From Eledone cirrhosa (taxonomy: Eukaryota), in assembly GCA_964016885.1 (NCBI GenBank), contig OZ024743.1, forward strand, positions 259,408,001-259,472,000: DNA of 64,000 nt, given 5' to 3'. Positions 2,622 through 63,076 of the stretch are shown piece by piece. Each line of letters opens with the position of its first letter. Position 1 is the first letter of the stretch. Both the position numbers and the translations under genes were made by a program. The notes beneath the pieces were generated by a model, which searched no databases, was not told where the DNA came from, and worked only from the letters and a program-made list of their open reading frames with translations.

Positions 2622-2736
<115 letters not shown>

Positions 2737-2838
2737 AATGAAGTAATTCCATCGGAAAAGTCCAGGAAAAAAGAGTGCTCTATGTAAGCAACAGAGCTTA
2801 ATTATTATTATTATGTAATAAACAACATAAGGCAATTA

Positions 2839-2898
2839 TTCCATTTACCAGTGGTTTCTTAAAAGCAAAAGGTTTTGCTTTCAATCCTCAGAATGAAA
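2839..2898 (-). ncRNA. Type I hammerhead ribozyme (inverted pLTR copy)
   Basis: Reverse complement of 8587-8646. Confidence 0.85.
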
Positions 2899-3112
2899 AA
2901 TCCTGGTTTGTTTATTGAATATGGATTCTAAAAACGAAAATGCAATCTATATGAAAGTGAGGCTGGAAAAGGGAGAAGGAAAGGAAAAATAAAATAAAAT
3001 AAAACTACACATGCAAACACACACAAAAAAAACCCAAAAGCATACTTACACACACACACACATATATATACACATATAATTTGCACGCATACACACATAC
3101 ACATACATATAC

Positions 3113-3163
<51 letters not shown>

Positions 3164-3823
3164 TATATACATACATACACATACACACACATATATATAT
3201 ATAAAAAGAGCGTACACCTACACACACATACACATATATATACACACATATACACATACATATATTCATACATACACACGCACACACACACACACACACA
3301 TATATACACACACACATACATATATATACACATGTACATATCCATACATATATATATATATATACATATATACACATACATATACACACATGTACACATA
3401 TACATACACACACACACACACACACACACATGTGTGTGTACAAGCCTACACATACACACACACATATATATACACACACACACATATACATACATTCACA
3501 CAAACATACAACGTACATACATACACATACATGAATGCACTCCACTACATATTAACACACGCAAATAAAAAATATATAAATAATATTAACAAATATTTGA
3601 CAGCGATACATGCCCCAGCTAACAGGACAGACACGCGTGGTAAGTAATACACACATAAGCGCATATACATACGTTCGAAATAGTAAACACATACACACAC
3701 TCTCACACATAAATATACATATACAAATACATAAACACGTACATACACATACATACGCAAACACGTACACGTATACAATATAAACACACACATGTATATG
3801 TAATTATATACACACACACACAC

Positions 3824-3884
<61 letters not shown>

Positions 3885-4343
3885 CAAAAATATAAAAATA
3901 TAAACGCACACACACATATATAAATACGTAAACACACATATACATACATAGCTAAACAATTATACACATGCAAATACGTATATATCAAAAGAACGCACAA
4001 CCAAATACAAACACACATACATATATACACACACACACACCCACACACAAACCCACACATACATAAAAATAAATAAAAACACACGCAACATATACATACA
4101 TACACGTACATATACACATATACATATATACACATACATATATACATATACACATACATATACACAAATATATACATACATATATATATATACACACGCA
4201 CACGCACACATACACACATGCATACACATACACACACACATATACATGTGTGTATGTGTAAAGCTCAGTATTAGATAAGACAAATGAACCTTACATAAAC
4301 GTATATATAGTAGTAAAGTAATAAAGCCATACAAGGCAATTAA

Positions 4344-4401
4344 TCCATTCACCAGAGGTTTCTTAAAAGCAAAAAAAGTTTCCTTCAATCTTCAGAATGA
4401 A
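4344..4401 (-). ncRNA. Divergent hammerhead motif (GUG), inverted pLTR copy
   Basis: Reverse complement of 7081-7138. Confidence 0.7.
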
Positions 4402-4443
4402 ATATACAAATATATACACACATACAGACACGCACACACACAC

Positions 4444-4488
<45 letters not shown>

Positions 4489-4735
4489 TACACATATATA
4501 TATATATATATATACAGACATATACACACACATACACACACATACATATACATACATACATACACATATATATACATACACAAACATATACGTACACATA
4601 TACATATATACACACAAAAAAACATACACATACACATAGGTATGTGAAGGGCAAAACAAAAAGAATATATGGGGTGGGGGGCCTAGAGGAGGTAAAAATA
4701 TAAAGGGAGGTAAGGGGGAAAAAAAATATTTTTTA

Positions 4736-6688
4736 AAATATCCACCTAGAATTAAAGACATGGCCAACTTCGAATTAGACCTCGTTAATCTAATTAGTGA
4801 TATCAAATTTCGTAAGTACATTAATAATTTTCAAACTAAACTTTCTCACGATATCTCTAATTTTAGAAATTCTACAAACACTTTTGTTCTTTCTGATAAA
4901 ACCAAAAACCTCTTTGAAGTTAATAGTAATTTGTATAACCAACTTTTAACTAATAGTATTACCAATAAATATCAATTAACTAATAATAATACCTACAATA
5001 CTATCAATAAAGAAGCTAAAGAACTAGCTAGTTCTTTACAAATAGATAACCGGATTGAAAGCTTAGCTAAGCGTAAAGCATATATTACCCTTAAAGACCA
5101 TAAATTGGACTTTACTAATCGACCTAGTTGTAGACTGATTAACCCGGCTAAATCCGAGGTTGGCCTTGCTAGTAAGAAAATCTTAAGAAAAATAATTATC
5201 CAAATTAGAACTAACACTGTCCTTTCACAGTGGCTAAATACTTCCTCTGTTATTTCTTGGTTCAATAATATACAAGGTAAAAATAAGTGTAGATTTACAC
5301 AATTTGATATTGTCGATTTTTACCCTTCTATTACCGTTTCCTTATTAACTAAAGCCTTAGATTTTGCAAGACCCTTCATTAATATCTCCAAATTAGAAGA
5401 GGACATTATCTTTCATGCCAGAAAAACTTTACTTTTTACTAATGATAAGATTTGGGTTAAAAAGTCAAACCCTGAAAACTCCTTCGATGTTGCAATGGGT
5501 TCTTATGACAGTGCGGATGTGTGCGACTTAGTAGGATTATTCCTTCTCCACACACTCAAAGAGAAATTTCCGTCCCATAATATCGGTTTATACCGTGATG
5601 ACGGATTAGCAGTTTCTCATACCACCAATGGCCATAATCTTGATAAATTCCGTAAAGATTTAATTAGTACCTTTGCTAATCTTAACCTTAAAATTACTAT
5701 AGATACGAACCTTACTAATGCTAACTTTCTTGATATTAATCTTGATCTACTTACTGCCTCTTTTAAACCCTATCATAAACCTAATGAAAATCTTAGGTAT
5801 ATACACAAAGAGTCTTGCCATCCCCCTATAGTTTTTAAAAATCTTATTCCTAACATTAGCCGTAGGATTTCTACTTTATCTTCGTCTATAGACATTTTTA
5901 ATAAAGCCGCCCCTTATTATAATAAAGCCCTTAAGAACAGCGGTTTTACAGAAAATATTTCTTATTTACCTATTCCCCCCCCTAAAACTAACCATAATAA
6001 CAGGAAAAGGAAGATTATTTGGTTCACACCCCCCTTCTCTCTAAATGTCAAAACTAATGTAGGAAGGAAATTCCTTGAACTATTAGACAAACATTTTCCT
6101 CCTATTCATAGATATTATAAGATTTTTAATAGGAATGTAGTTAAGATCAGCTACTCTTGTTGTCCATCCATGAAATCCAAAATCACAAGTTCAAAACGTA
6201 CGAGGATAAATCCAGGATGCAGTTGCAGGAAGCCGGATGAATGCCCATTGCAGGGTAAATGTAAAACAAAATCTGTCGTTTATGAGGCTAAAATAACGCC
6301 AGTTATCAACAACCAGCCAGCCAGAAGCGAGCGATATGTCGGTATGACCCAGGACAGGTTTAAAACCAGATTTTACTCACATGTCGCTTCTTTTAAACAC
6401 TCAGATAAACGAACATCAACGGCCCTCGCAAGTAAGGTATGGGATCTCAAGGATAGTAATATCCCGTACTCTATTGATTGGTCTATATTAGACCATTCGA
6501 GGGAGTACCAAAGGGGCACAAAGAATTGTTCTTTGTGTACCACTGAAAAGTATAGGATCTTGCTAAACTTGAGAGACACTTCCGCTTGCCTTAACTCTAA
6601 GACTGAGATCTTCAGATGCTGTCCTCATCTGAAATCGCATCTGATCTGTAACTGGATTGACACTCCTACGATAAATCAACCGCCTTGA
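4736..6688 (+). CDS. 5'-truncated second copy of the PLE ORF (lacks first ~60 codons; in-frame ATG at 4760 gives 642 aa)
   Basis: Translation identical to residues 69-710 of the 8866-10998 ORF. Identity begins at AAATA 4736 = 9046. Confidence 0.9.
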   Translation, partial: KYPPRIKDMANFELDLVNLISDIKFRKYINNFQTKLSHDISNFRNSTNTFVLSDKTKNLFEVNSNLYNQLLTNSITNKYQLTNNNTYNTINKEAKELASSLQIDNRIESLAKRKAYITLKDHKLDFTNRPSCRLINPAKSEVGLASKKILRKIIIQIRTNTVLSQWLNTSSVISWFNNIQGKNKCRFTQFDIVDFYPSITVSLLTKALDFARPFINISKLEEDIIFHARKTLLFTNDKIWVKKSNPENSFDVAMGSYDSADVCDLVGLFLLHTLKEKFPSHNIGLYRDDGLAVSHTTNGHNLDKFRKDLISTFANLNLKITIDTNLTNANFLDINLDLLTASFKPYHKPNENLRYIHKESCHPPIVFKNLIPNISRRISTLSSSIDIFNKAAPYYNKALKNSGFTENISYLPIPPPKTNHNNRKRKIIWFTPPFSLNVKTNVGRKFLELLDKHFPPIHRYYKIFNRNVVKISYSCCPSMKSKITSSKRTRINPGCSCRKPDECPLQGKCKTKSVVYEAKITPVINNQPARSERYVGMTQDRFKTRFYSHVASFKHSDKRTSTALASKVWDLKDSNIPYSIDWSILDHSREYQRGTKNCSLCTTEKYRILLNLRDTSACLNSKTEIFRCCPHLKSHLICNWIDTPTINQPP

Positions 6689-7080
6689 ACTCCTTCTCTG
6701 CTCTTTACTTTTGCTACGGCTTTTATTTTGCTGCTTCTACCTTCTGTACTCTTGTTTTTAAAAAATATTTTTTTTCCCCCTTACCTCCCTTTATATTTTT
6801 ACCTCCTCTAGGCCCCCCACCCCATATATTCTTTTTGTTTTGCCCTTCACATACCTATGTGTATGTGTATGTTTTTTTGTGTGTATATATGTATATGTGT
6901 ACGTATATGTTTGTGTATGTATATATATGTGTATGTATGTATGTATATGTATGTGTGTGTATGTGTGTGTATATGTCTGTATATATATATATATATATAT
7001 GTGTATGTACATATATATATATATGTATATATATATATGTGTGTGTGTGCGTGTCTGTATGTGTGTATATATTTGTATAT

Positions 7081-7138
7081 TTCATTCTGAAGATTGAAGG
7101 AAACTTTTTTTGCTTTTAAGAAACCTCTGGTGAATGGA
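7081..7138 (+). ncRNA. Second, divergent hammerhead motif with GUG at the cleavage triplet
   Basis: ttcatt-CTGAAGA-ttgaagg...cttttaa-GAAA-cctctgg-TG-aatgga. Paralog of 8587-8646, including the downstream aattgcctt..ttattac. Confidence 0.7.
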
Positions 7139-7597
7139 TTAATTGCCTTGTATGGCTTTATTACTTTACTACTATATATACGTTTATGTAAGGTTCATTT
7201 GTCTTATCTAATACTGAGCTTTACACATACACACATGTATATGTGTGTGTGTATGTGTATGCATGTGTGTATGTGTGCGTGTGCGTGTGTATATATATAT
7301 ATGTATGTATATATTTGTGTATATGTATGTGTATATGTATATATGTATGTGTATATATGTATATGTGTATATGTACGTGTATGTATGTATATGTTGCGTG
7401 TGTTTTTATTTATTTTTATGTATGTGTGGGTTTGTGTGTGGGTGTGTGTGTGTGTATATATGTATGTGTGTTTGTATTTGGTTGTGCGTTCTTTTGATAT
7501 ATACGTATTTGCATGTGTATAATTGTTTAGCTATGTATGTATATGTGTGTTTACGTATTTATATATGTGTGTGTGCGTTTATATTTTTATATTTTTG

Positions 7598-7658
<61 letters not shown>

Positions 7659-8318
7659 GTGTGTGTGTGTGTATATAATTACATATACATGTGTGTGTTT
7701 ATATTGTATACGTGTACGTGTTTGCGTATGTATGTGTATGTACGTGTTTATGTATTTGTATATGTATATTTATGTGTGAGAGTGTGTGTATGTGTTTACT
7801 ATTTCGAACGTATGTATATGCGCTTATGTGTGTATTACTTACCACGCGTGTCTGTCCTGTTAGCTGGGGCATGTATCGCTGTCAAATATTTGTTAATATT
7901 ATTTATATATTTTTTATTTGCGTGTGTTAATATGTAGTGGAGTGCATTCATGTATGTGTATGTATGTACGTTGTATGTTTGTGTGAATGTATGTATATGT
8001 GTGTGTGTGTATATATATGTGTGTGTGTATGTGTAGGCTTGTACACACACATGTGTGTGTGTGTGTGTGTGTGTGTATGTATATGTGTACATGTGTGTAT
8101 ATGTATGTGTATATATGTATATATATATATATATGTATGGATATGTACATGTGTATATATATGTATGTGTGTGTGTATATATGTGTGTGTGTGTGTGTGT
8201 GCGTGTGTATGTATGAATATATGTATGTGTATATGTGTGTATATATATGTGTATGTGTGTGTAGGTGTACGCTCTTTTTATATATATATATGTGTGTGTA
8301 TGTGTATGTATGTATATA

Positions 8319-8371
<53 letters not shown>

Positions 8372-8586
8372 GTATATGTATGTGTATGTGTGTATGCGTG
8401 CAAATTATATGTGTATATATATGTGTGTGTGTGTGTAAGTATGCTTTTGGGTTTTTTTTTGTGTGTGTTTGCATGTGTAGTTTTATTTTATTTTATTTTT
8501 CCTTTCCTTCTCCCTTTTCCAGCCTCACTTTCATATAGATTGCATTTTCGTTTTTAGAATCCATATTCAATAAACAAACCAGGATT

Positions 8587-8646
8587 TTTCATTCTGAGGA
8601 TTGAAAGCAAAACCTTTTGCTTTTAAGAAACCACTGGTAAATGGAA
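8587..8646 (+). ncRNA. Type I hammerhead ribozyme, intact core, predicted cleavage after GUA (A8639)
   Basis: Stem I tttcatt/aatggaa; CTGAGGA; stem II ttgaaagcaaaa/ttttgcttttaa; GAAA; short stem III cc-act-gg; TA. Confidence 0.85.
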
Positions 8647-8865
8647 TAATTGCCTTATGTTGTTTATTACATAATAATAATAATTAAGCTCTGTTGCTTA
8701 CATAGAGCACTCTTTTTTCCTGGACTTTTCCGATGGAATTACTTCATTTATACAGCTCCAACCGGGATTGATCGCAGCATATTCGATATTACATATACGA
8801 TTGGCACTTTCCAGCCCGTTTAGTTGAGCACTCTACAGTTTTCAGGAATTTAACCAACATACACC

Positions 8866-10998
8866 ATGGACCTTTATGATTTGGATTATTCTATCAAAAA
8901 CATACCCACTCCTTCCAACACAACATACACCAAAATCCTCATTGATAAAATCGAGCAAGTCGTTAAAAGAATGAGATGGAAGGCAATGGTTTACGATGGA
9001 CTATTCAGTGCTGATACTAAAGATAATTTTGACATTAAATCCCGTAAATATCCACCTAGAATTAAAGACATGGCCAACTTCGAATTAGACCTCGTTAATC
9101 TAATTAGTGATATCAAATTTCGTAAGTACATTAATAATTTTCAAACTAAACTTTCTCACGATATCTCTAATTTTAGAAATTCTACAAACACTTTTGTTCT
9201 TTCTGATAAAACCAAAAACCTCTTTGAAGTTAATAGTAATTTGTATAACCAACTTTTAACTAATAGTATTACCAATAAATATCAATTAACTAATAATAAT
9301 ACCTACAATACTATCAATAAAGAAGCTAAAGAACTAGCTAGTTCTTTACAAATAGATAACCGGATTGAAAGCTTAGCTAAGCGTAAAGCATATATTACCC
9401 TTAAAGACCATAAATTGGACTTTACTAATCGACCTAGTTGTAGACTGATTAACCCGGCTAAATCCGAGGTTGGCCTTGCTAGTAAGAAAATCTTAAGAAA
9501 AATAATTATCCAAATTAGAACTAACACTGTCCTTTCACAGTGGCTAAATACTTCCTCTGTTATTTCTTGGTTCAATAATATACAAGGTAAAAATAAGTGT
9601 AGATTTACACAATTTGATATTGTCGATTTTTACCCTTCTATTACCGTTTCCTTATTAACTAAAGCCTTAGATTTTGCAAGACCCTTCATTAATATCTCCA
9701 AATTAGAAGAGGACATTATCTTTCATGCCAGAAAAACTTTACTTTTTACTAATGATAAGATTTGGGTTAAAAAGTCAAACCCTGAAAACTCCTTCGATGT
9801 TGCAATGGGTTCTTATGACAGTGCGGATGTGTGCGACTTAGTAGGATTATTCCTTCTCCACACACTCAAAGAGAAATTTCCGTCCCATAATATCGGTTTA
9901 TACCGTGATGACGGATTAGCAGTTTCTCATACCACCAATGGCCATAATCTTGATAAATTCCGTAAAGATTTAATTAGTACCTTTGCTAATCTTAACCTTA
10001 AAATTACTATAGATACGAACCTTACTAATGCTAACTTTCTTGATATTAATCTTGATCTACTTACTGCCTCTTTTAAACCCTATCATAAACCTAATGAAAA
10101 TCTTAGGTATATACACAAAGAGTCTTGCCATCCCCCTATAGTTTTTAAAAATCTTATTCCTAACATTAGCCGTAGGATTTCTACTTTATCTTCGTCTATA
10201 GACATTTTTAATAAAGCCGCCCCTTATTATAATAAAGCCCTTAAGAACAGCGGTTTTACAGAAAATATTTCTTATTTACCTATTCCCCCCCCTAAAACTA
10301 ACCATAATAACAGGAAAAGGAAGATTATTTGGTTCACACCCCCCTTCTCTCTAAATGTCAAAACTAATGTAGGAAGGAAATTCCTTGAACTATTAGACAA
10401 ACATTTTCCTCCTATTCATAGATATTATAAGATTTTTAATAGGAATGTAGTTAAGATCAGCTACTCTTGTTGTCCATCCATGAAATCCAAAATCACAAGT
10501 TCAAAACGTACGAGGATAAATCCAGGATGCAGTTGCAGGAAGCCGGATGAATGCCCATTGCAGGGTAAATGTAAAACAAAATCTGTCGTTTATGAGGCTA
10601 AAATAACGCCAGTTATCAACAACCAGCCAGCCAGAAGCGAGCGATATGTCGGTATGACCCAGGACAGGTTTAAAACCAGATTTTACTCACATGTCGCTTC
10701 TTTTAAACACTCAGATAAACGAACATCAACGGCCCTCGCAAGTAAGGTATGGGATCTCAAGGATAGTAATATCCCGTACTCTATTGATTGGTCTATATTA
10801 GACCATTCGAGGGAGTACCAAAGGGGCACAAAGAATTGTTCTTTGTGTACCACTGAAAAGTATAGGATCTTGCTAAACTTGAGAGACACTTCCGCTTGCC
10901 TTAACTCTAAGACTGAGATCTTCAGATGCTGTCCTCATCTGAAATCGCATCTGATCTGTAACTGGATTGACACTCCTACGATAAATCAACCGCCTTGA
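8866..10998 (+). CDS. Intact 710-aa PLE polyprotein: reverse transcriptase + Cys linker + GIY-YIG endonuclease
   Basis: N-terminal SIKNIP...RMRWKA and SDKT; RT motifs QFDIVDFYPSI, AMGSYDS, LYRDDG, NFLDINL; linker CSC..CPLQGKC; endonuclease VVY...YVGMT..F..R..H; C-terminal CSLC..E...CPH. No stops or frameshifts. Naiad assignment is from recalled family motifs. Confidence 0.95.
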   Translation: MDLYDLDYSIKNIPTPSNTTYTKILIDKIEQVVKRMRWKAMVYDGLFSADTKDNFDIKSRKYPPRIKDMANFELDLVNLISDIKFRKYINNFQTKLSHDISNFRNSTNTFVLSDKTKNLFEVNSNLYNQLLTNSITNKYQLTNNNTYNTINKEAKELASSLQIDNRIESLAKRKAYITLKDHKLDFTNRPSCRLINPAKSEVGLASKKILRKIIIQIRTNTVLSQWLNTSSVISWFNNIQGKNKCRFTQFDIVDFYPSITVSLLTKALDFARPFINISKLEEDIIFHARKTLLFTNDKIWVKKSNPENSFDVAMGSYDSADVCDLVGLFLLHTLKEKFPSHNIGLYRDDGLAVSHTTNGHNLDKFRKDLISTFANLNLKITIDTNLTNANFLDINLDLLTASFKPYHKPNENLRYIHKESCHPPIVFKNLIPNISRRISTLSSSIDIFNKAAPYYNKALKNSGFTENISYLPIPPPKTNHNNRKRKIIWFTPPFSLNVKTNVGRKFLELLDKHFPPIHRYYKIFNRNVVKISYSCCPSMKSKITSSKRTRINPGCSCRKPDECPLQGKCKTKSVVYEAKITPVINNQPARSERYVGMTQDRFKTRFYSHVASFKHSDKRTSTALASKVWDLKDSNIPYSIDWSILDHSREYQRGTKNCSLCTTEKYRILLNLRDTSACLNSKTEIFRCCPHLKSHLICNWIDTPTINQPP

Positions 10999-11390
10999 AC
11001 TCCTTCTCTGCTCTTTACTTTTGCTACGGCTTTTATTTTGCTGCTTCTACCTTCTGTACTCTTGTTTTTAAAAAATATTTTTTTTCCCCCTTACCTCCCT
11101 TTATATTTTTACCTCCTCTAGGCCCCCCACCCCATATATTCTTTTTGTTTTGCCCTTCACATACCTATGTGTATGTGTATGTTTTTTTGTGTGTATATAT
11201 GTATATGTGTACGTATATGTTTGTGTATGTATATATATGTGTATGTATGTATGTATATGTATGTGTGTGTATGTGTGTGTATATGTCTGTATATATATAT
11301 ATATATATATGTGTATGTACATATATATATATATGTATATATATATATGTGTGTGTGTGCGTGTCTGTATGTGTGTATATATTTGTATAT

Positions 11391-11448
11391 TTCATTCTGA
11401 AGATTGAAGGAAACTTTTTTTGCTTTTAAGAAACCTCTGGTGAATGGA
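11391..11448 (+). ncRNA. Divergent hammerhead motif (GUG), terminal pLTR copy
   Basis: Identical to 7081-7138. Confidence 0.7.
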
Positions 11449-11907
11449 TTAATTGCCTTGTATGGCTTTATTACTTTACTACTATATATACGTTTATGTA
11501 AGGTTCATTTGTCTTATCTAATACTGAGCTTTACACATACACACATGTATATGTGTGTGTGTATGTGTATGCATGTGTGTATGTGTGCGTGTGCGTGTGT
11601 ATATATATATATGTATGTATATATTTGTGTATATGTATGTGTATATGTATATATGTATGTGTATATATGTATATGTGTATATGTACGTGTATGTATGTAT
11701 ATGTTGCGTGTGTTTTTATTTATTTTTATGTATGTGTGGGTTTGTGTGTGGGTGTGTGTGTGTGTATATATGTATGTGTGTTTGTATTTGGTTGTGCGTT
11801 CTTTTGATATATACGTATTTGCATGTGTATAATTGTTTAGCTATGTATGTATATGTGTGTTTACGTATTTATATATGTGTGTGTGCGTTTATATTTTTAT
11901 ATTTTTG

Positions 11908-11966
<59 letters not shown>

Positions 11967-12626
11967 GTGTGTGTGTGTGTATATAATTACATATACATGT
12001 GTGTGTTTATATTGTATACGTGTACGTGTTTGCGTATGTATGTGTATGTACGTGTTTATGTATTTGTATATGTATATTTATGTGTGAGAGTGTGTGTATG
12101 TGTTTACTATTTCGAACGTATGTATATGCGCTTATGTGTGTATTACTTACCACGCGTGTCTGTCCTGTTAGCTGGGGCATGTATCGCTGTCAAATATTTG
12201 TTAATATTATTTATATATTTTTTATTTGCGTGTGTTAATATGTAGTGGAGTGCATTCATGTATGTGTATGTATGTACGTTGTATGTTTGTGTGAATGTAT
12301 GTATATGTGTGTGTGTGTATATATATGTGTGTGTGTATGTGTAGGCTTGTACACACACATGTGTGTGTGTGTGTGTGTGTGTGTATGTATATGTGTACAT
12401 GTGTGTATATGTATGTGTATATATGTATATATATATATATATGTATGGATATGTACATGTGTATATATATGTATGTGTGTGTGTATATATGTGTGTGTGT
12501 GTGTGTGTGCGTGTGTATGTATGAATATATGTATGTGTATATGTGTGTATATATATGTGTATGTGTGTGTAGGTGTACGCTCTTTTTATATATATATATG
12601 TGTGTGTATGTGTATGTATGTATATA

Positions 12627-12677
<51 letters not shown>

Positions 12678-12891
12678 GTATATGTATGTGTATGTGTGTA
12701 TGCGTGCAAATTATATGTGTATATATATGTGTGTGTGTGTGTAAGTATGCTTTTGGGTTTTTTTTGTGTGTGTTTGCATGTGTAGTTTTATTTTATTTTA
12801 TTTTTCCTTTCCTTCTCCCTTTTCCAGCCTCACTTTCATATAGATTGCATTTTCGTTTTTAGAATCCATATTCAATAAACAAACCAGGATT

Positions 12892-12951
12892 TTTCATTCT
12901 GAGGATTGAAAGCAAAACCTTTTGCTTTTAAGAAACCACTGGTAAATGGAA
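12892..12951 (+). ncRNA. Type I hammerhead ribozyme (terminal pLTR copy), cleavage after A12944
   Basis: Identical to 8587-8646. Confidence 0.85.
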
Positions 12952-12984
12952 TAATTGCCTTATGTTGTTTATTACATAATAATA

Positions 12985-13018
<34 letters not shown>

Positions 13019-13037
13019 CTGTGTGTGTGTGTGTATA

Positions 13038-13266: not shown

Positions 13267-13836
13267 TGTAAGTATGTATGTATACGTACATACATATATG
13301 TATACAGACGTACAGTAGCATGCATATATATATATATACATATATACATATACATACAGGTACACATACATATATGTACGTATCAGTTTAGCGGACGCTT
13401 ATTATAGCACCCGCTTTGTTCGTTTGTAAACAAACTGAACAGCCTGAATTTATGCCGCACGGTGTTAAGGCAACCACGTCACCTTTTTGTTCAACACTGA
13501 CACAGGAACGATGTACTAGTTTCAAGCTTGTTAGCTATCATCAGCACCGTATACCCATCTGCCAGATAGTTGAACGTTCGAAAGTATATACTTTCCTTAT
13601 GAAAATTAACGGCTGAGCAGCCTAATTTGCATATCGGGCGGCATAAATTCAGGCTGTTCAGTTTGTTTACAAACGAACAAAGCGGGCGCTATAATAAGCG
13701 TCCGCTAAACTGATACGTACATATATGTATGTGTACCTGTATGTGTACCTGTATGTATATGTATATATGTATATATATATATGCATGCTACTGTACGTCT
13801 GTATACATATATGTATGTACGTATACATACATACTT

Positions 13837-13839
<3 letters not shown>
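13267..13839 (-). mobile_element. Non-coding PLE-type insertion: ~190-bp inverted arms around an HHR-bearing core
   Basis: 13267-13458 is the reverse complement of 13638-13839. (TA)n lies near both sides. HHR in the spacer. Confidence 0.75.
13508..13550 (-). ncRNA. Minimal type I hammerhead ribozyme, intact, GUA site
   Basis: Minus strand: acggtg-CTGATGA-t-agct-aaca-agct-t-GAAA-ctag-TA-catcgt. Palindromic stem III ACTAGT is typical of dimerising PLE HHRs. Confidence 0.85.
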
Positions 13840-15236: not shown

Positions 15237-15615
15237 TTCAAAATATTATTATAAATATTTCGGAAATATATATATAAAAAAATATATATATATATATTAT
15301 ATATAGTTCCGAAATATATACAATAAAATATATTTTGATTACGTGAATGTCTATATTTATTAATATTTTGAATTAATATTAATAACTCCAGAAAACTTTT
15401 TTGTTGAGTGCTTCTAATCTATTGTAAAACTATATTCATTGATTAATCAATGAACCTTGTTTATATATAGTCAGGATCTTGAGGTAGTAAAATCGAAAGA
15501 TCAGGTCGCTCTATATCACCATACGATGTCGAGTGCTCTATTCTACTTGCATATTTTTTTGTGTTGCAAACGCAAATATCACCGCCAATTGATTGAACAA
15601 TTTAATAACAGAACA

Positions 15616-18505: not shown

Positions 18506-18711
18506 TGCTTCTCTGGATGAAATCGGTTGTGTATCACTACAGTGCTCTTACGACTACCCAGGAGTACAGGTCTTAAATGAGAGAAATATATTTCTGCTAA
18601 GGTAATTTCGTCTGCAATATGTACCTAGGAGTGTGATATAAATGTGCCTCATGGCGGTAGCGTATGAGTAGTAAGAGATTTAGCTTCTATTTTTATCAGG
18701 TAGATCGGTCA
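18506..18711 (+). repeat. ~205-bp dispersed repeat, left arm of an inverted pair
   Basis: Reverse complement of 20556-20762 with scattered mismatches. Confidence 0.8.
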
Positions 18712-19641
18712 TTTTATTTTCTCCATCCCGGAAGGCTAAAAGGCAAAGTTGACTTCGGCTGGATTTGAACTAAGATTAACTAAACACTGTAAAATATTTT
18801 GTCCCATTTTATCAAACATACGAGCTATATGAATTAACGTAAATAGCTTTTAGAAGGAATAACATTTCCTTTGTCTGATCTGATGATCGACAAAACAATA
18901 TATTATTTCATCTAACCTATTGATGTTGATGTTCGTGTCTGTTTTCATTAATTTTGCCATGTTTGTGATTTTTATTGTTATTTTATCGTTAGGAATTATG
19001 TAGGAAATGTACTTTCGTTGGGTTACACTGTGATCTATTGGTATTAATTCTTTAATAATTTCGAGGCTAAGACAATATTCATGTTCTTGGCTTCTATCTT
19101 TAGAAATTCCTATTTTGAAATCACATAATTTCTTTTATTGCTATTTTAGTTCTGATTTAGTTTTCGTTCATCAGTACATTGTAGATATTATAGGGTTTTA
19201 TCTCAATGAGTCGTCTGTTTTAGTTTCTTATTCTACACGTGCTAATTTCATCTTCGGGCATTGCGTTCTGAATGTTTTTTATTAATTGTTTGATGCTGTG
19301 CTTTATTTGTGATTTCATTATATTATCTTTTTCAATTTTTAAATATTATTTAGCTATTATTTTCGAAACCAGCATTAGATTTAGATCCGGGTTATTTTCT
19401 TTCCAAATTTTTGACAAGAACATAGTCGTGATTTATTTTTCGGAACAGTATTATGCAGATAGGATAGAAAGCATCTTATGTGTATTTATGCTCTTTTCTA
19501 TTTTATTCGTTGCTGTTCAGCATTAAAATTCGGCCTTTTAATTAAATTATCATATTTCTCGTTTGGTATGTGTATATTTAATTCTCGTGACAAATCGAAT
19601 AATCAAAGATATATGAAACAGACATAAAGATATACATACAT

Positions 19642-19690
<49 letters not shown>

Positions 19691-19741
19691 GAGAGAGAGA
19701 GAGAGAGATTGTATGTGTTTGTCAGTGTATATCGATATGTT

Positions 19742-19810
<69 letters not shown>

Positions 19811-19826
19811 AATATATATATATATA

Positions 19827-19857
<31 letters not shown>

Positions 19858-20555
19858 GCGTGTGTGTGAGAGCGCATTTGCTTGATTATTCACAGACATG
19901 CATTTAGATATTTCGATATATACTCACACACACGCACACACACACATATACATAATGAAATTAACCCAAGTTCCATCTTTAAAATGAATGTGATATTTAA
20001 AATAAGTGTCTTCAGTTGTATTGAAAAGCTACAATTACCAGCTGAACCCATCAAAACTAGTCATAGATCAGCTGCCATCTTTTCTAATAGAATCTTCTTT
20101 CCTTTGTGATTAGTAAAACTCAATGTTGTGATTTTCACTTTGAAACTCTATTATGAAAGATAGCTTGGCGCAAATACAAAGAAATTATGGTCATTATATG
20201 CAGGTGTATTGTGATCGGACAGATCTATATTCAAAGGTATTCCATCGATAAACACTCTACATTTTATTATACTTTCTATTTTTCAGACATAGGGTATTTG
20301 AAACTATACTATCCAACGGCGGAGTGTAATTAGAGCGAGATTTGATAGGTTGATACTTCTAGCTGGTTGAACAAATACATCGAAAGATTGACTCGTTGTC
20401 TCCTGACTACTGACATACATTGTTATTTCATATGGTGAGATGCTTTCAGTCAAATGATACGGTTATGTTTTTTTTTGTATTTTTCGTTTTAGTCATCGCA
20501 TTTGATAATGTTTTATCACAGGTTAATGCAACAGCGGCAAACAAAAAAATCTATG

Positions 20556-20762
20556 TGACCGATCTGCCTGAAAAAAATAGAAGCTAAATCTCTTGCTACT
20601 CATACCCTACCGCCATGAGACACATTTATATCACACTCCTAGGTACATATTACATACGAAAATACCTTAGCAAAAATATATTTCTCTCTTTTTAAACCTG
20701 CACTCCCGGGTAAGTCGCAAGAGCAATGTAGTGATACACAGCCGATTTCATCCAGAGAAGCA
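20556..20762 (-). repeat. ~205-bp dispersed repeat, right arm of an inverted pair
   Basis: Reverse complement of 18506-18711. Confidence 0.8.
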
Positions 20763-32473: not shown

Positions 32474-34602
32474 CTGAATTGAATAATGTCAGCCTTAAAT
32501 ATTCGGAACTGTAGAGATTTCCAGGGGTTGATTGAGGAGATGGGTCTGTCCATTTTCACGTTATTTTTTTTTTCCGTTGCCATTGTCTTGTGCGCCCCAC
32601 TGTTATGCAATTTATATTCGAAAGCCTTAGCCTCGGTCTTTTATAAACTATTATATTAATAGACGTTGCGTCGCCCTGTCTGTTTCTTTTATTCTCCCTT
32701 ACTACTTTTCAACACCTCATTGTCATTTAACTTCCACAACATACTGGACTTATAATCCACATTTCTTTTGTTTTTCTATTTCTCTTCTTTCTATATATAT
32801 TTTACTCCCAAGCATTTGCACACACGTTTACGTTCGTTTCTTCCTTCCTTTTCAGTTGACACATTTTGGTTTATAGCATATATTTTCTCTCTTTTCTTTT
32901 TTAGTATTTAGTTGTGTAAATCGTCGAAAGGTATGCCTAGTCTGTGCTTGTTTGTACCCATTTAGTTGGATTGAACAGTATCAACCTTAGAACTTCGAAA
33001 ATGTGACTGAAGAGATTGGACTGTCTATTTGTCCATTGTTTATTGCGTTGTATTTGTCCTGTGTGCCCATTGTTTTGAAATATAAATATATATTAGCTTT
33101 TTTTTTCTTTATTCAAAATGGTTGTATTTATCGAACCTACAAATCTAGACCATTATCACGTAATCAAAGGAATTCGGTGGTGCTAGATTCGGTAGGGCAT
33201 ATGGTAGAATAGTTATGATGGCAGCATTTATTATACTGTTGCTGGGAATAATTAGTGTGGTAAGATGTGATGTTTCCAGTAATGATGAGAGTAAAAATAT
33301 GAATGGCTGCAAAAATGTTGGTGGAAATTGGTAGTGACGAAGAAGATGGGTGTGATGATAGAAGCAGCATTTTTTTATGTTCTCCATATAGAGATGGCAC
33401 TGTCGAAAATAAGTATTGTGCGAAGCTTAGTAATTAGGATGATGTTGGTAAGTGTAATAATGGAGGTAGTGGTTCTCTTGATAGAAACAGTTAGTGATTG
33501 AATGTGAGTCCTGCAGAGATATATGAAATATTGATATATTATTAAAGTAAATTGAACACTATGAATGCAACTATATATACACTATGAATGCAACTATATA
33601 TACATTGAGACTTGACATTATACGCATAAAAGAAATGCTGCATACATATTATCAGTTTAATGTTTAGATCTTAGATCTAGATTGACCGAGAGCAAAATAA
33701 ACTTCATATGTTTTACTGAATGAATATATTCTATGCAGCTTGCTGTATGTATTATGAACCAAACATAACAAAAAACAGTGAGTGACAAATTTCAAGGCAA
33801 ACATAAATAGTGATGCTGCTAGAAGATAGCTAGGTTGCATTAATGCTTCCATAGGAAATGATTCAAGCCTTTAGCTTCATGAAGCTGATTTATAATATGG
33901 TCCTTTTATTTTAGTCCAGCTTGCATTTTTGAAGCGTGTGAATAACATTTCAGAACATTACATGTTTTTTTTTCTGCATAACGTTCAGATATGAAGACGG
34001 CATAAACGATAGAAGAAATTATAAGGAAGCTATCGAGACTTTTCACAATGAACCATTTAGTAGCATATCTTGTACTTTGTAATTACTAGTGTGAAAGCTA
34101 TTATTGTGGTTAAACTGACGAATATTCCACAGAATGTAAAGAGTAAAACGTTTTTAGTGATCAATACTATTAATGATTGATTCCACATGATATTCAGATA
34201 TTCCCTTTTAAAAATATGTTTTTGTAAATAACATTTCGTTAATTAAGCATTGAGGAAATTAAATTTTTTTTTATTAAAGTGAATAGATGAGCCTCGGTAC
34301 TGTCAAGGTGTTTCAACTCCAGAAATAATTTACAGATTTATTCCATAGTTATAAACTATTATTTATAATTATTTACCTTCTGGTAACTTCCACCAAAACA
34401 AACACATTTTCCAAATATTCCTTGTTCTACGTTGATGAAATTAGTACAAGCGATTTATTAATTCAATTCTAGGTATTTCATCTAAAAAAGTATCAAGGAC
34501 TATTGAGACTATAGATTGTCGGACTTCTAATTAAAATATTAAGCACTTCATCTCCTATTAACAGTTCTGTTTATGCCATAGTCAATTATACTCTATTACA
34601 TA

Positions 34603-35017
34603 TATTATAAATAATTGTTTCTACTTTTGGCACAAGGCCAGCAATTATCCCAGTGTATTTCTGATACTTTATTTTATCGACCCTGTAAAATAAAGTACCA
34701 TATATTATAAATAATTGTTTCTACTTTAGGCACAGGGCAAGCAATTACCCAGTGCATTACGGGTACTTTATTTTATCGACCCCGTAAGGATGAAAGGCAA
34801 AGTCAACCTCAGCGGGATTTGAACTCATATTATAAATAATTGTTTCTACTATTGGCACAAGGCCAGCAAATTACCCAGTACATTACTGGTACTTTATTTT
34901 ATCGACCCCGTAAGGATGAAAGGCAAAGTTAACCTCGGCGGGATTTGAACTCAGAATGGCAAGGGCCGTAACTCTATGCGTCAAAGCATGGCGTCCGACC
35001 CTCTACCGATACTGCCA
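34603..35017 (-). mobile_element. Cluster of three partial tandem tRNA-derived SINE copies (MetaSINE-like core)
   Basis: Repeated ataattgtttctac..ggcacaaggccagcaatt..ggtactttattttatcgaccccgtaaggatgaaaggcaaagt. Minus-strand B box gagttcaaatccc. Confidence 0.8.
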
Positions 35018-35139
35018 AAAATAATGACACTCCAATGTATGTCATAATCAATAACACACTACTCTCAAAGATGCAGCTGATATAACTAGATATTAACGAG
35101 TATGCTACAGAGTCATTGGTGAATGCTACGATGTTGGAA

Positions 35140-46892: not shown

Positions 46893-47473
46893 ACTCCGAA
46901 ACAATCTTTTTCACATAATTAACAAAGGCACTATTAAAAGTATATAATAGCAAATTCTATTTATCGTTATTTTATTTCTCACTAACATTCTAGGTCTCAA
47001 TAATTACTTTTCAATAAGCTTATAATTTTCTTATGTTATGACAAATATTTTCTAGAAAATGCTTCTTTGAAACATGAGGCACGCAATAAAATTACAATCG
47101 TTATCACTGAACTACATTCTTCTCCCCTGAAAACCTAGCAGTTAGCAACCATCCTAGACATAACGTCCGCTTGAACTTATAACTTGCAATCTCTTGAAAT
47201 CTCTGGGGGAGATTTGGTGTCAGCTCGCACAGACACATAGCAAAATCCAAACATCCAGTTAAAGTAAGTTGAAAAACACAACTGTATTTAATTTGTACCC
47301 AATTTGGAATATGCTTGCTCCAGAATGTCCTCACAACTACACCTTTCCTGTATATCTATGATTTGTCCATCTCATAAATGTGTAAAATAATGCATGCGTA
47401 TATTATTGGTTGTAGGAATGACTCTTTAGTGGCAAATAAATAAAAGTAATCATTATTGGGGTTATTCCTGAGG

Positions 47474-47635
47474 GCAGAGGATTAGCAGAATTGGTAGAGC
47501 ATCGGACAACATGCTTTGCAGTATAGAGTTATGGCATTTCACGTTCTGAATTGAAATCCTGTCTAGGTTAGCTTTACCATTCATCCTTAAGAGATCGATA
47601 AAATAAAGTACCAGTAACACATTAGGATCGATTTA
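47474..47635 (+). mobile_element. tRNA-derived SINE (MetaSINE-like core); further decayed copies at ~18715, 20800, 22540, 37000, 39020, 39690, 53150, 53750, 54500, 57180 and 60720
   Basis: tagcagaattggtagagc ... ttcatcctt..gatcgataaaataaagtaccag. Confidence 0.7.
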
Positions 47636-48704: not shown

Positions 48705-49221
48705 TACCTCATTTTACTAGTCTCAAGAACGCGTCTACACGACGTGAGAAAGAATCCCAAAAGGCGGAGGGGGAGATAGTCACGCGATATAACGGTCGAG
48801 AATATAACGGTCAGAGCTAAGCCTCCTATAACCACGAAGAAAATACCACGGAGGCGGAGGGGGTATTCATATCGAGGCCGTAGAAGAGGTAGTGAAGAAG
48901 GCGAGAAGTATGAGTAATGGAAGTTTTCCAGTTGTCCCCACACTTCAAAGATTGCTCGACCAGAGGGAGTTATTAATATATTTGGAAACACACAGATACA
49001 TGCGGACACACACATATATATATATACATGAATGCATCCGCACCCAACTGTGAGTTAAGGGTGCCAACTTCACCGATGTTGCTCAATGAATGACTGGGAC
49101 AGACCAATTCAGTTTGAACTAGACTGAACCAGTATCAGAGTTAAAAATACATTATGAAGAGAGAAGAAACATTTAGATATAATTAGTAATAAAATGTATC
49201 ATACCTAAACTGTTCCTAAAT

Positions 49222-49309
49222 TCCTCGACTACGTAGTTTCGTGGCATAAACAAAAACAATATATCAAAGATATAGAGTCCTTGCGAGGTCTGCCGACTTA
49301 TCAAGAGGA
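49222..49309 (-). ncRNA. Second copy of the variant hammerhead
   Basis: Identical to 48617-48704, offset 605. Confidence 0.65.
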
Positions 49310-49508
49310 TACCTCATTTTACTAGTCTCAAGAACGCGTCTACACATTTTAACTCTGATACTGGTTCAGTCTAGTTCAAACTGAATTGGTCTGTCCCAGT
49401 CATTCATTGAGCAACATCGGTGAAGTTGGCACCCTTAACTCACAGTTGGGTGCGGATGCATTCATGTATATATATATATGTGTGTGTCCGCATGTATCTG
49501 TGTGTTTC

Positions 49509-49569
<61 letters not shown>

Positions 49570-49651: not shown

Positions 49652-49789
49652 ATATTTATTAAAATAACAGATTAAAGTTTAAGCAAAGAATCGCTGCTTA
49701 CACCCTTAACGGGATCTTCTGAAGTTTCAGAAGATCCCGTTAAGGGTGTAAGCAGCGATTCTTTGCTTAAACTTTAATCTGTTATTTAA

Positions 49790-49796
<7 letters not shown>
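49652..49796. repeat. Near-perfect ~72-bp-arm palindrome with 2-nt loop
   Basis: ...ttaacgggatcttctgaa-gt-ttcagaagatcccgttaa...; only one 1-nt indel between the arms. Confidence 0.95.
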
Positions 49797-49832
<36 letters not shown>

Positions 49833-58971: not shown

Positions 58972-59441
58972 GAACATAGTCTAAACAACAACCAACAAGA
59001 ACAACAACAATCAGCAACAACAACCTAAAAAAACCAATAACACCAATAACATCATGATCATCAAACACAGCTGAAACAACGTCAACAATAATAACATAGT
59101 CTGGTATATATTTACTTTCGCAGTTTCATTCGAATTGCATTAATAACTTGTTGATATCTTAATCATGTTTACAGTAATGGCATACGATAATTGCATTGTT
59201 GAGGATGGCAATCATGATGATGATAATGATAATTATGATGAGGATCATGATGATTATGACGACGACGACGATGATGATGATGATGAGGATGATGTGGTGG
59301 TGGTTGCGATGATGTTGTTGCTGACCATTATAATTATTGCAATGATAACGACGATATCTTAACTATAATTAAAGAAGGTCTGCGGGATTGCGTCCAGAAT
59401 ACATGTTTTTACCCCGTTTGTAAAGTAAGTTGGATTACTTT

Positions 59442-59805
59442 AATAAATAATTGTTTCTACTTTTGGCACAAGGCCAACAATTATTCCAGTGTATTACTGG
59501 TACTTTGTTTTATCGACCCCGTAAGGATGAAAGGCAAAGTTAACCTCGGCGGGATTTGAACTCAGTCTGTAAAGGGACGTAACTGTGCTGCAAAGCGTGG
59601 CGTCCGACCCTCTACCGATACAGGCCAATCCACTGCCCTTTTATAAATAATTGTTTCTACTTTAGGCACAAGGCCAGCAATTACCCAGTGCATTACTGGT
59701 ACTTTATTTTATCGACCCCGTAAGGATGAAAGGCAAAGTCAACCTCGGCGAGATTTGAACTCAGATCGTAAAGGGACGTAACTATGCTGGAAAGCATGGC
59801 GTCCA
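59442..59805 (-). mobile_element. Two head-to-tail young SINE copies
   Basis: Near-identical ~200-bp units, same family as 34603-35017 and 62385-62575. Confidence 0.85.
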
Positions 59806-60559
59806 ATGTATGAATATTACATAATTTATATGCTAAATTTCGTGGCTGTTGATTAAATATATCTTATAGCTTAATCTTTAAAATTCACTTCTTTAAAATT
59901 ATCAAATGTCAACACTTCCGGTTAGCGGCCGTTATATTATAACACTTATAATCGCATATATTTCCGTCGCTAATTTATATATAATGTCGTATTTTTTTTA
60001 AATATATCATGGATTACTGATTACAGAAGACAGTGTAACATAGGCTTTGTTCAATTTCTGTCTATATTGTCAATTACGATTTTATTTGATGTATCATATC
60101 TACATGCATATATATTTGTGTATAATATCAACATACACACTACACATGCTAGCAGAAAACCACTCGTAGGGTGGTTTTTCTGCTAGTTGACCTTAATAGT
60201 GTGTGATGAGTCTGATATATATGAAATATAATAGATTTCATCTGGGACAATCAATGGTTCTAATAACAACGGTTTTCACTGGTCAGATATATGTCACTTT
60301 TAGCAAGTGAGACACAGTTTATTGACAAATACAAAGAAAAAAATAAAAGGGGATAAAGGAGGGGAAATCTTTGCACCCTTTGATGGACAAGATGATGAAA
60401 GCATTACCGTAGAAAATAGCTAGTGTCATCTGATATATTAGTCATTCGATCTCGTGCTGTGTGGAAGAAAATGATCTATATTACAACAACCTGACAGTGG
60501 CTTTACGCTGGCATTTCTAAAGCTCATTTACGTGGCAGCCAAGACGCAGAACTATTCCG

Positions 60560-62330: not shown

Positions 62331-62384
62331 ATACACTGACTTTAATCATTCAAATCTATATACACTGTGATCATGTAGGGTTCA

Positions 62385-62575
62385 ATAATTGTTTCTACTT
62401 TAGGCACAAGGCCAGCAATTACCCAGTGCATTACTGGTACTTTATTTTATCGACCCCGTAAGGATGAAAGGCAAAGTCAACCTCGGCGGGATTTGAACTC
62501 AGATCATAAAGGGACGTAACTATGCTGGAAAGCATGGCGTCCGACCCTCTACCGATACTGTCAATCCACCGCCAT
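62385..62575 (-). mobile_element. Young SINE copy
   Basis: Near-identical to 59645-59805. Flanking direct repeat catgtagggttcaataat (62371-62388 / 62573-62590) is a likely TSD. Confidence 0.85.
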
Positions 62576-62941
62576 GTAGGGTTCAATAATGCGCCATGCT
62601 GAGGTGTGCAAACTTGGAGGCTACCTAGTTCACCTAAATATATTACTACACATATAAATAATAACACACGTAAAAATAACTTCCCAGTTGTGAAAGTTAT
62701 CCTTCAATCAGTTATTCAGTGTGTAACTACTAACAACTAAAATACAGATGAATGCATATAGCAGTCAGTGTAACGTTAGAGAACGACAGACGACAGACGA
62801 CACAAGATCGTGTGTTATCATTATACACGCCATTACAGCCGCTATTACAGATACGCGATATGTCTTGATAAATGACACCCAATACATTTCAGTCATCACC
62901 ATCGCCATCATCATCATCATATATTCGTCATTATTATTATT

Positions 62942-63060
62942 CTCAGTTCAAATCCCGCCGAGGTTAATTTTGCCTTTGATCCTTACGGGGTCGATAAAAT
63001 AAAGTACCAGTAATACACTGGGTAATTGCTGGCCTTGTGCCTAACGTAGAAACAATTATT
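62942..63060 (+). mobile_element. 5'-truncated SINE copy, opposite orientation to 62385-62575
   Basis: cagttcaaatcccgccgaggttaattttgcctttgatccttacggggtcgataaaataaagtaccag...agaaacaattatt. Confidence 0.85.
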
Positions 63061-63076
63061 ATTATTATTATTCATC

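Follow-up and report, generated by a model that had tools for sequence, protein, structure and literature searches.

A recently spreading Hydra-clade Penelope-like element with a layered, TA/TG-rich 3' UTR that was probably enlarged by insertions into its own carried repeats

The window, by which we mean the whole 64,000-nucleotide stretch of Eledone cirrhosa DNA that was analysed, contains a 10,251-bp insertion that lies within a (TA)n tract. Self-alignment of the window resolves this insertion into three units of one retroelement, namely an inverted copy, a 5'-truncated copy and a full copy, with the following features.

2624..2733, no strand: left half of the target, (CA)n followed by (TA)35
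2737..4738, minus strand: inverted 5'-truncated copy, consisting of UTR only (2803-4738) and a 66-bp tail (2737-2802)
4736..6688, plus strand: 5'-truncated ORF, aa 61-710, overlapping the inverted arm by 3 bp
6689..8682, plus strand: 3' UTR / pseudo-LTR, copy 2, 57% microsatellite with 8 (TA)6+ tracts
8683..8748, plus strand: optional 66-bp 'tail', which joins the UTR to the next unit
8749..8865, plus strand: 5' leader of the full-length copy
8866..10998, plus strand: intact 710-aa ORF, RT followed by a GIY-YIG-type endonuclease, with Hydra-clade motifs
10999..12987, plus strand: 3' UTR / pseudo-LTR, copy 3, without a tail at its end
12985..13034, no strand: right half of the target, (TA)n followed by (TG)n
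8588..8646 and 12893..12951, plus strand, and 2839..2897, minus strand: terminal type I hammerhead motif, read from the sequence
11391..11483, plus strand (also from 7081, plus strand, and ending at 4401, minus strand): inner relic derived from the 3' end of the family itself, containing a second hammerhead motif
11499..11535, minus strand (also 7189-7225 and 4257-4293): decayed stub of the outer end of family F, in antisense

The truncated copy, including its tail, spans positions 4736-8748 and the full copy spans 8749-12987. The segment 4736-8682 is repeated as 9046-12987 at 99.87% identity, with 0 substitutions over 3,947 bp and three indels (2, 2 and 1 nt) that all fall in repeat runs. The segment 2737-4738 is an inverted copy of 6756-8748 at 99.25% identity, and this arm carries one further 12-bp TA indel. 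A previous sequence-only reading of this DNA had described an intact ORF inserted between (CA)n(TA)n and (TA)n(TG)n, and both statements are borne out: the frame is open at 8866-10998, giving 710 aa from the ATG, and the two repeat tracts lie at 2624-2733 and after 12985. The identity of the two translations that was reported there holds over aa 61-710, the upstream copy being without the first 60 aa. The description of the ~2 kb after the stop codon as mostly microsatellite is narrowly correct, with 57% of the 1,989-1,994 bp of UTR lying in repeats of period ≤6 as detected by TRF. The UTR at 6689-8682 is also strongly strand-biased (329 TG versus 41 CA dinucleotides, with T at 48%).

Judged by its sequence motifs, the element is a member of the Hydra clade of Penelope-like elements (PLEs). 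This clade has been defined by RWK, a change of DKG to DKT, a CxCX5C linker, the lack of CCHH, and the presence of CxxC and CxH, together with a canonical hammerhead near the 3' end and insertion into (TA)n; its members are generally below 3 kb, a trait that is descriptive and not diagnostic (PMC8557442). The 710-aa ORF carries RWK at aa 37, DKT at aa 114 and YRDD at aa 346, followed by the CxCX5C linker at aa 555, a GIY-YIG-type pair formed by VVY at aa 574 and YVG at aa 594, CxxC at aa 658 and CxH at aa 689; there is no cysteine between aa 570 and 657, and hence no CCHH. Within this single ORF the RT precedes a C-terminal GIY-YIG domain, whose motifs occupy aa 555-690 of 710, a domain order that is based on motifs and a by-eye fit to the published Hydra alignment. 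The element had been called 'Naiad-like', a label that is not retained because the endonuclease is C-terminal and the diagnostic Hydra motifs are all present. Of 8,000 candidates scored in a protein search, 1,428 proved to be relatives; identity is 41-59% for the best 120, and ten of the relatives share RWK, DKT and the linker cysteines. Pfam scans gave no RT or GIY-YIG match for the ORF or for 11 aligned relatives, and no PDB sequence was matched in a profile search.

The published Hydra clade, which includes Hydra-1_Obim from Octopus bimaculoides, resembles this element in ORF layout, motifs and 3' hammerhead, as well as in (TA)n insertion, partial tandems, an inverted copy and a tail (PMC8557442). 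The protein of Hydra-1_Obim is closely alike in the alignment published there, as judged by eye. However, the unit is 4.31 kb long here, versus 1.1-2.7 kb in 26 of the 27 families given in that source (the 27th, of 3,045 bp, includes an inverted copy), and the excess over typical Hydra length is entirely UTR. Specifically, the 3' UTR is 2 kb here versus ~200-270 nt in three published consensus sequences, and the tail is 66 bp versus the usual 30-40 bp (PMC8557442). The second, inner hammerhead and the captured foreign ends described below are further differences from the families in that account. Naiad elements share the (TA)n preference, the tandem and inverted insertions and the occurrence in octopus, and have a comparable size of 3.4-4.4 kb, whereas their defining features (an N-terminal EN, DKA, CCHH and no canonical hammerhead; PMC8557442) are each the opposite of what is found here.

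Copies of the family are numerous and many are young. In the 3.0-Gb genome, the ORF DNA is matched in at least 48 places at 93-100% identity and the protein in at least 64 places, with 24 of the best 30 protein matches being free of stops. Among 80 distinct ORF ends, 34 are at least 98.3% identical, in agreement with the earlier proposal of a young family. The same UTR follows the ORF at 30 of 30 loci taken from the ORF matches. In addition, 33 of the 34 young copies contain both the inner relic and the foreign stub, the 34th being an internal deletion, and a mid-UTR marker is present in 31 of the 34. These counts confirm that the microsatellite UTR is part of the transposing unit. Its length ranges from 1,827 to 2,124 bp in 26 young copies. 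When 14 young copies were compared with the window (one boundary-cut row having been dropped), 600 bp of the ORF differed by 1-6 substitutions and no indel, and the UTR by 12-47 substitutions and 11-25 indels of mostly even length. Thus, the order of the repeats is kept while run lengths change by slippage.

The tabulation of insertion flanks, which had been proposed as a check, agrees with targeting of (TA)n by the family. Such a tract adjoins the element in 42 of 43 flank rows from 21 loci, and in the remaining row the neighbour is the tail of a relative. Ends in both orientations are available for 17 loci, and at 16 of these the tail is found on one end and not on the other. Several family insertions lie within TA tracts that flank the ends of other PLEs.

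Even the oldest copies recovered (85-89% identity) possess the long UTR, which measures 1.6-2.1 kb in the four oldest. Its mean length is 1.63 kb in 11 middle-aged copies versus 1.96 kb in 26 young ones, and one deletion variant (L066) has a UTR of 828 bp. A microsatellite share that grows over time was looked for and not seen, this share being ~50% from the oldest to the youngest copies. Sister Hydra families in the genome also have long UTRs with some repeats. One of them (L251-L260) has a 719-aa frame with 70% aa identity and its own UTR of >1.2 kb with short repeat tracts, and a further relative (L310) is at 81-87% aa identity. In a sequencing run of another organism code (X5), contigs are 92-98% identical to the ORF, and one contig is identical over 11465-11545, which covers the end of the relic, the TA remnant and the foreign stub. 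The layered UTR may therefore be shared with a related species, although this is one run only and mislabelling or mixing is possible. The relic region yielded no pieces in runs X6 and X8 and two short pieces in X7.

Two hammerhead motifs are found in each UTR. The terminal motif, a candidate type I hammerhead, has an intact core, a palindromic stem III and an A at the cleavage position. Rfam returned no hammerhead among the 150 of 203 matches that were listed, these being repeat-driven microRNA and snoRNA matches below gathering scores, and single-strand folding z-scores were weak (-0.06 to -1.2). In its layout the terminal motif agrees with the 26 Hydra entries listed in File S2 of PMC8557442, and a G occupies the cleavage position in none of these entries.

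The inner relic is ~100 nt long and consists of a hammerhead motif, then ~35 nt matching the no-tail end of the element, then a TA remnant. At its cleavage position (11442) the inner motif has a G. Cleavage triplets of hammerheads follow the NUH rule, and because the G breaks this rule, cleavage is predicted to be blocked and the inner hammerhead to be dead. In a side branch (L198 and L208) this position is an A, accompanied by other stem changes, and pure repeats are less frequent in the UTR. That the inner hammerhead was inactivated twice independently was considered and rejected, since the A-bearing branch nests within the G-bearing lineage.

The distribution of the relic among copies bears on the time of its arrival. 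Among 69 copies with at least 90% ORF-end identity, 63 contain it, and the six exceptions comprise one deletion and five copies with interrupted UTRs. By contrast, it is found in 0 of 11 copies below 90%, of which 8 keep other UTR markers. A tree of 37 ORFs, in which 22 carriers (from the 63) and seven non-carriers (from the eight that could be scored) were placed with four unscorable copies and four sister-family sequences, was rooted on the sister family at 70% aa identity. This tree is a ladder in which all 22 carriers fall into one branch with 100/100 support, together with three unscorable copies, and all seven scored non-carriers branch below it. A clade restricted to the 22 carriers fails the formal test (p-AU 2e-8), as the three copies, which have interrupted UTRs, nest among the carriers. 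The absence of the relic from copies below 90% and the rooted ORF tree together indicate that it was gained once, later than the long UTR. The reverse order, in which the inner hammerhead is the ancestral end and the rest was captured later, was rejected because older copies have a long UTR without the relic.

Stems I-III of the inner motif have changed step by step. The relic resembles the terminal end more closely in older copies. It is also almost never used as an element end: among 30 sampled inner-type motifs, 29 continue into the next UTR spacer (27 as judged by motif and two by eye), leaving a single genuine end. Short family stubs that start near the same point are common as free insertions.

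Directly behind the inner relic lies a decayed stub that derives from a different hammerhead element with TA flanks, family F, and represents its outer end. When an older form of this stub is compared with free TA-flanked ends, their outermost ~50 nt are matched with identities reaching 91% over 47 nt (E 2e-13). The stub in the window itself has no donor match at E<1e-4, and the link runs via the older copies. Family F has 5,575 pattern matches in the genome versus 0 for the control, and 9 of 10 fetched donors start at (TA)n at the same point as the stub boundary. A free end of this family is also present in the window at 15308-15463, where it is 80-82% identical over ~158 nt to L303/L305.

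Older copies contain two further foreign ends, which have since been lost. The corresponding spacers have 30 of 47 and 5 of 22 distinct matches outside the family's UTR. The donor family of one of them has 81,133 matches, with L311 and L319 lying behind Hydra-like coding sequence, and the other was seen free in 2 of 40 arbitrary 10-kb stretches of the genome. As judged by sequence match, three UTR spacers, one current and two restricted to older copies, therefore correspond to ends of other dispersed elements. The hammerhead-like end with 81,133 matches (L311-L320), which is far commoner than the family under study, occurs mostly as short stubs and fold-backs in (TA)n. For the mid-UTR spacers at 11775-11845 and 12085-12262, no free relative was found in ~2 Mb of loci. 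Among 214 marker intervals at loci chosen for intact ORFs, seven are more than 200 bp too long; each of these has non-repeat sequence beside TA/TG runs, and one is enlarged by 5 kb containing another Hydra-like ORF.

Several other repeats are found elsewhere in the window. A fold-back pair of 3' stubs at 49652-49818 belongs to a second Hydra family, family C (98% identity to L241), which has a protein at 42% identity to that of the studied element and a UTR of ~1 kb. Further fold-back elements with arms of 170-205 bp at 91-100% identity are present at 13267-13839, 18506-20762 and 48976-49517. A dispersed repeat of ~120-150 bp occurs in both orientations at 34602-35018, 47471-47621, 59441-59808 and 62384-63068.

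These observations are probably best explained by a recently spreading, TA-tract-targeting Hydra PLE whose 2-kb TA/TG-rich UTR has grown by insertions into the repeats that it carries. PLE tandem loci are known to be transcribed through, AT-rich DNA is nicked by the PLE endonuclease, and ends with or without a tail result from reverse transcription that begins at two neighbouring internal sites (PMC11167929, PMC4209133). By analogy with this PLE biology, a tandem locus of the studied family would be transcribed through the ORF and UTR, the GIY-YIG domain would nick a (TA)n tract, and the RT would start from either of two constant positions at the distal UTR end, producing a copy with or without the tail. 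Everything between the ORF and the terminal end would be copied, and therefore a short insertion in a TA tract of the source copy would be inherited by all of its descendants. Given that the relic appears to have been gained once, after the long UTR existed, the carried TA tracts are likely to act as landing sites. The feedback between carrying and targeting repeats that had been suggested for this element is thus supported within the element itself, where carried TA tracts took insertions.

A serious competitor, although we judge its chances to be somewhat below even, is that the long UTR arose by a single 3' read-through event that captured the host DNA separating an ORF from a stub of its own family further downstream, with the foreign ends already residing in the captured DNA. 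Host DNA in this genome does resemble a pile of TA-flanked element ends, as illustrated by the family insertions that lie beside other PLE ends, and both the donorless mid-UTR spacers and the 1.6-2.1 kb UTRs of the oldest copies are compatible with such an origin. However, the later-gained inner relic needs a second event, which would again require an insertion into a carried TA tract. Read-through capture can be reconciled with the preferred explanation for the oldest layer only, which may have come by either route.

A function for the element, such as dimerization with the terminal ribozyme or pairing with the target, is unlikely to be the reason why its repeats and its inner hammerhead persist. 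Metazoan PLE hammerheads have been proposed to act as dimers (PMC4209133), and the stable ~50% microsatellite share and the TG-over-CA strand bias of the UTR would be in keeping with a conserved role. Nevertheless, the stems of the inner motif have changed stepwise, old copies spread without this motif, and deletion variants exist (such as L066 with its 828-bp UTR). Moreover, the Hydra families with published consensus sequences have UTRs of ~200-270 nt (PMC8557442), and hammerhead mutants of an anole PLE still inserted in vitro (PMC11167929).

Of lower probability still is the proposal that the family is the main engine of the microsatellite load of the genome through carry-and-target feedback. 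Microsatellite takes up a 5.5-fold greater share of the UTR than of arbitrary DNA (57% versus a mean of 10.3%, sd 10.2 points, in the 40 arbitrary 10-kb stretches), carried tracts do take insertions, and the sister Hydra families also have long, partly repeat UTRs. The 40 stretches (400 kb) contain 550 (TA)6+ tracts, versus 8 per 2-kb UTR, and extrapolate to ~309 Mb of microsatellite and ~4.1 million (TA)6+ tracts in the genome. Against these totals, genome-wide pattern matches number 5,931 for the terminal hammerhead end, a count that includes some older inner motifs. The ORF end is matched 1,233 times, the inner motif 679 times and the mid-UTR marker of young copies 405 times. The excess of 3' ends over ORFs is also seen in raw reads from two animals of the same species label. 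Among 30 sampled 3' ends, 14 are stubs that extend at most 100 bp upstream of the hammerhead and 7 extend at least 1 kb (extents having been read partly by eye), which does not support the earlier view that several kb are added with every jump.

If a full UTR is granted to all of the ends, the family would contribute 6.7 of ~309 Mb (2.2%) of microsatellite and 47,000 of ~4.1 million TA tracts (1.2%), and a rough estimate from the 30 sampled ends is 0.6% of microsatellite bases. In the 40 arbitrary stretches, one ~300-bp family fragment was found. When recognisable copies are counted, just ~1-2% of the microsatellites in the genome thus come from the family; the patterns miss old decayed copies, and the share contributed over the lifetime of the lineage could be higher. 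As a genome-wide cause the feedback fails: microsatellite makes up ~10% of the genome, and at most ~2% of this microsatellite can be assigned to recognisable copies.

Finally, near-identical repeats are hard for assemblers, but a triplication created by misassembly, with the repeats belonging to host flank, is almost certainly not the explanation, as private indels distinguish the three copies, and the ordered UTR follows the ORF on many contigs, in tandem and inverted arrangements with differing flanks and truncation points.

Returning to growth by insertion into carried repeats, a more speculative extension can be outlined, which as a whole we regard as possible but doubtful. The UTR of an active TA-targeting PLE might serve as a self-feeding landing strip that, by carrying its own target, accretes the ends of the element and its siblings, the inner ones being silenced, the ORF could in principle receive a new working 3' end by this route, and the long Hydra UTRs of this genome might constitute a dated and ordered record of active TA-targeting elements. 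If this were true, the long UTRs would offer a naturally occurring test of the features that a PLE end needs in order to be used.

Several components of this system are already known, including TA-targeting by Hydra elements and a Hydra family in octopus (PMC8557442), movement of simple sequence repeats (SSRs) by Penelope elements (PMC7878876) and the seeding of microsatellites by LINEs (PMC6050309). In Litopenaeus vannamei, Penelope copies that are >98% identical move internal SSRs, which then lengthen, and this has been put forward as a route of SSR expansion (PMC7878876). TEs hold most SSRs in that genome, whereas the family studied here holds ~1-2%, and the relevant sections of that account name no clade, target preference or captured ends. 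The squamate CR1-L3 and Rex LINEs likewise spread microsatellites at their 3' ends, with one terminal motif and on a genome-shaping scale, in contrast to the compound internal UTR and small total found here (PMC6050309). What is new is the layered UTR with a relic of the element's own end, a second hammerhead and foreign ends. Among the open-licence papers listed by literature searches, as judged by title and abstract, none was found to describe a PLE UTR whose layers derive from captured ends, and the pertinent parts of PMC13282606, PMC3124438 and bioRxiv 10.64898/2026.07.22.740005 contained nothing of this kind.

The microsatellite richness of this genome is not explained by the family. Simple-repeat masking would cut the family into pieces, and microsatellite markers placed within it would be multi-copy. 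The element offers a direct view of a feedback that is usually only argued, in which an element that carries its own target is hit there and passes the hit on. Furthermore, the presence in one RNA of two near-identical ends, one used and one ignored, provides a test of what PLE RT recognizes and of whether the hammerhead matters, both of which are open questions (PMC11167929, PMC8557442).
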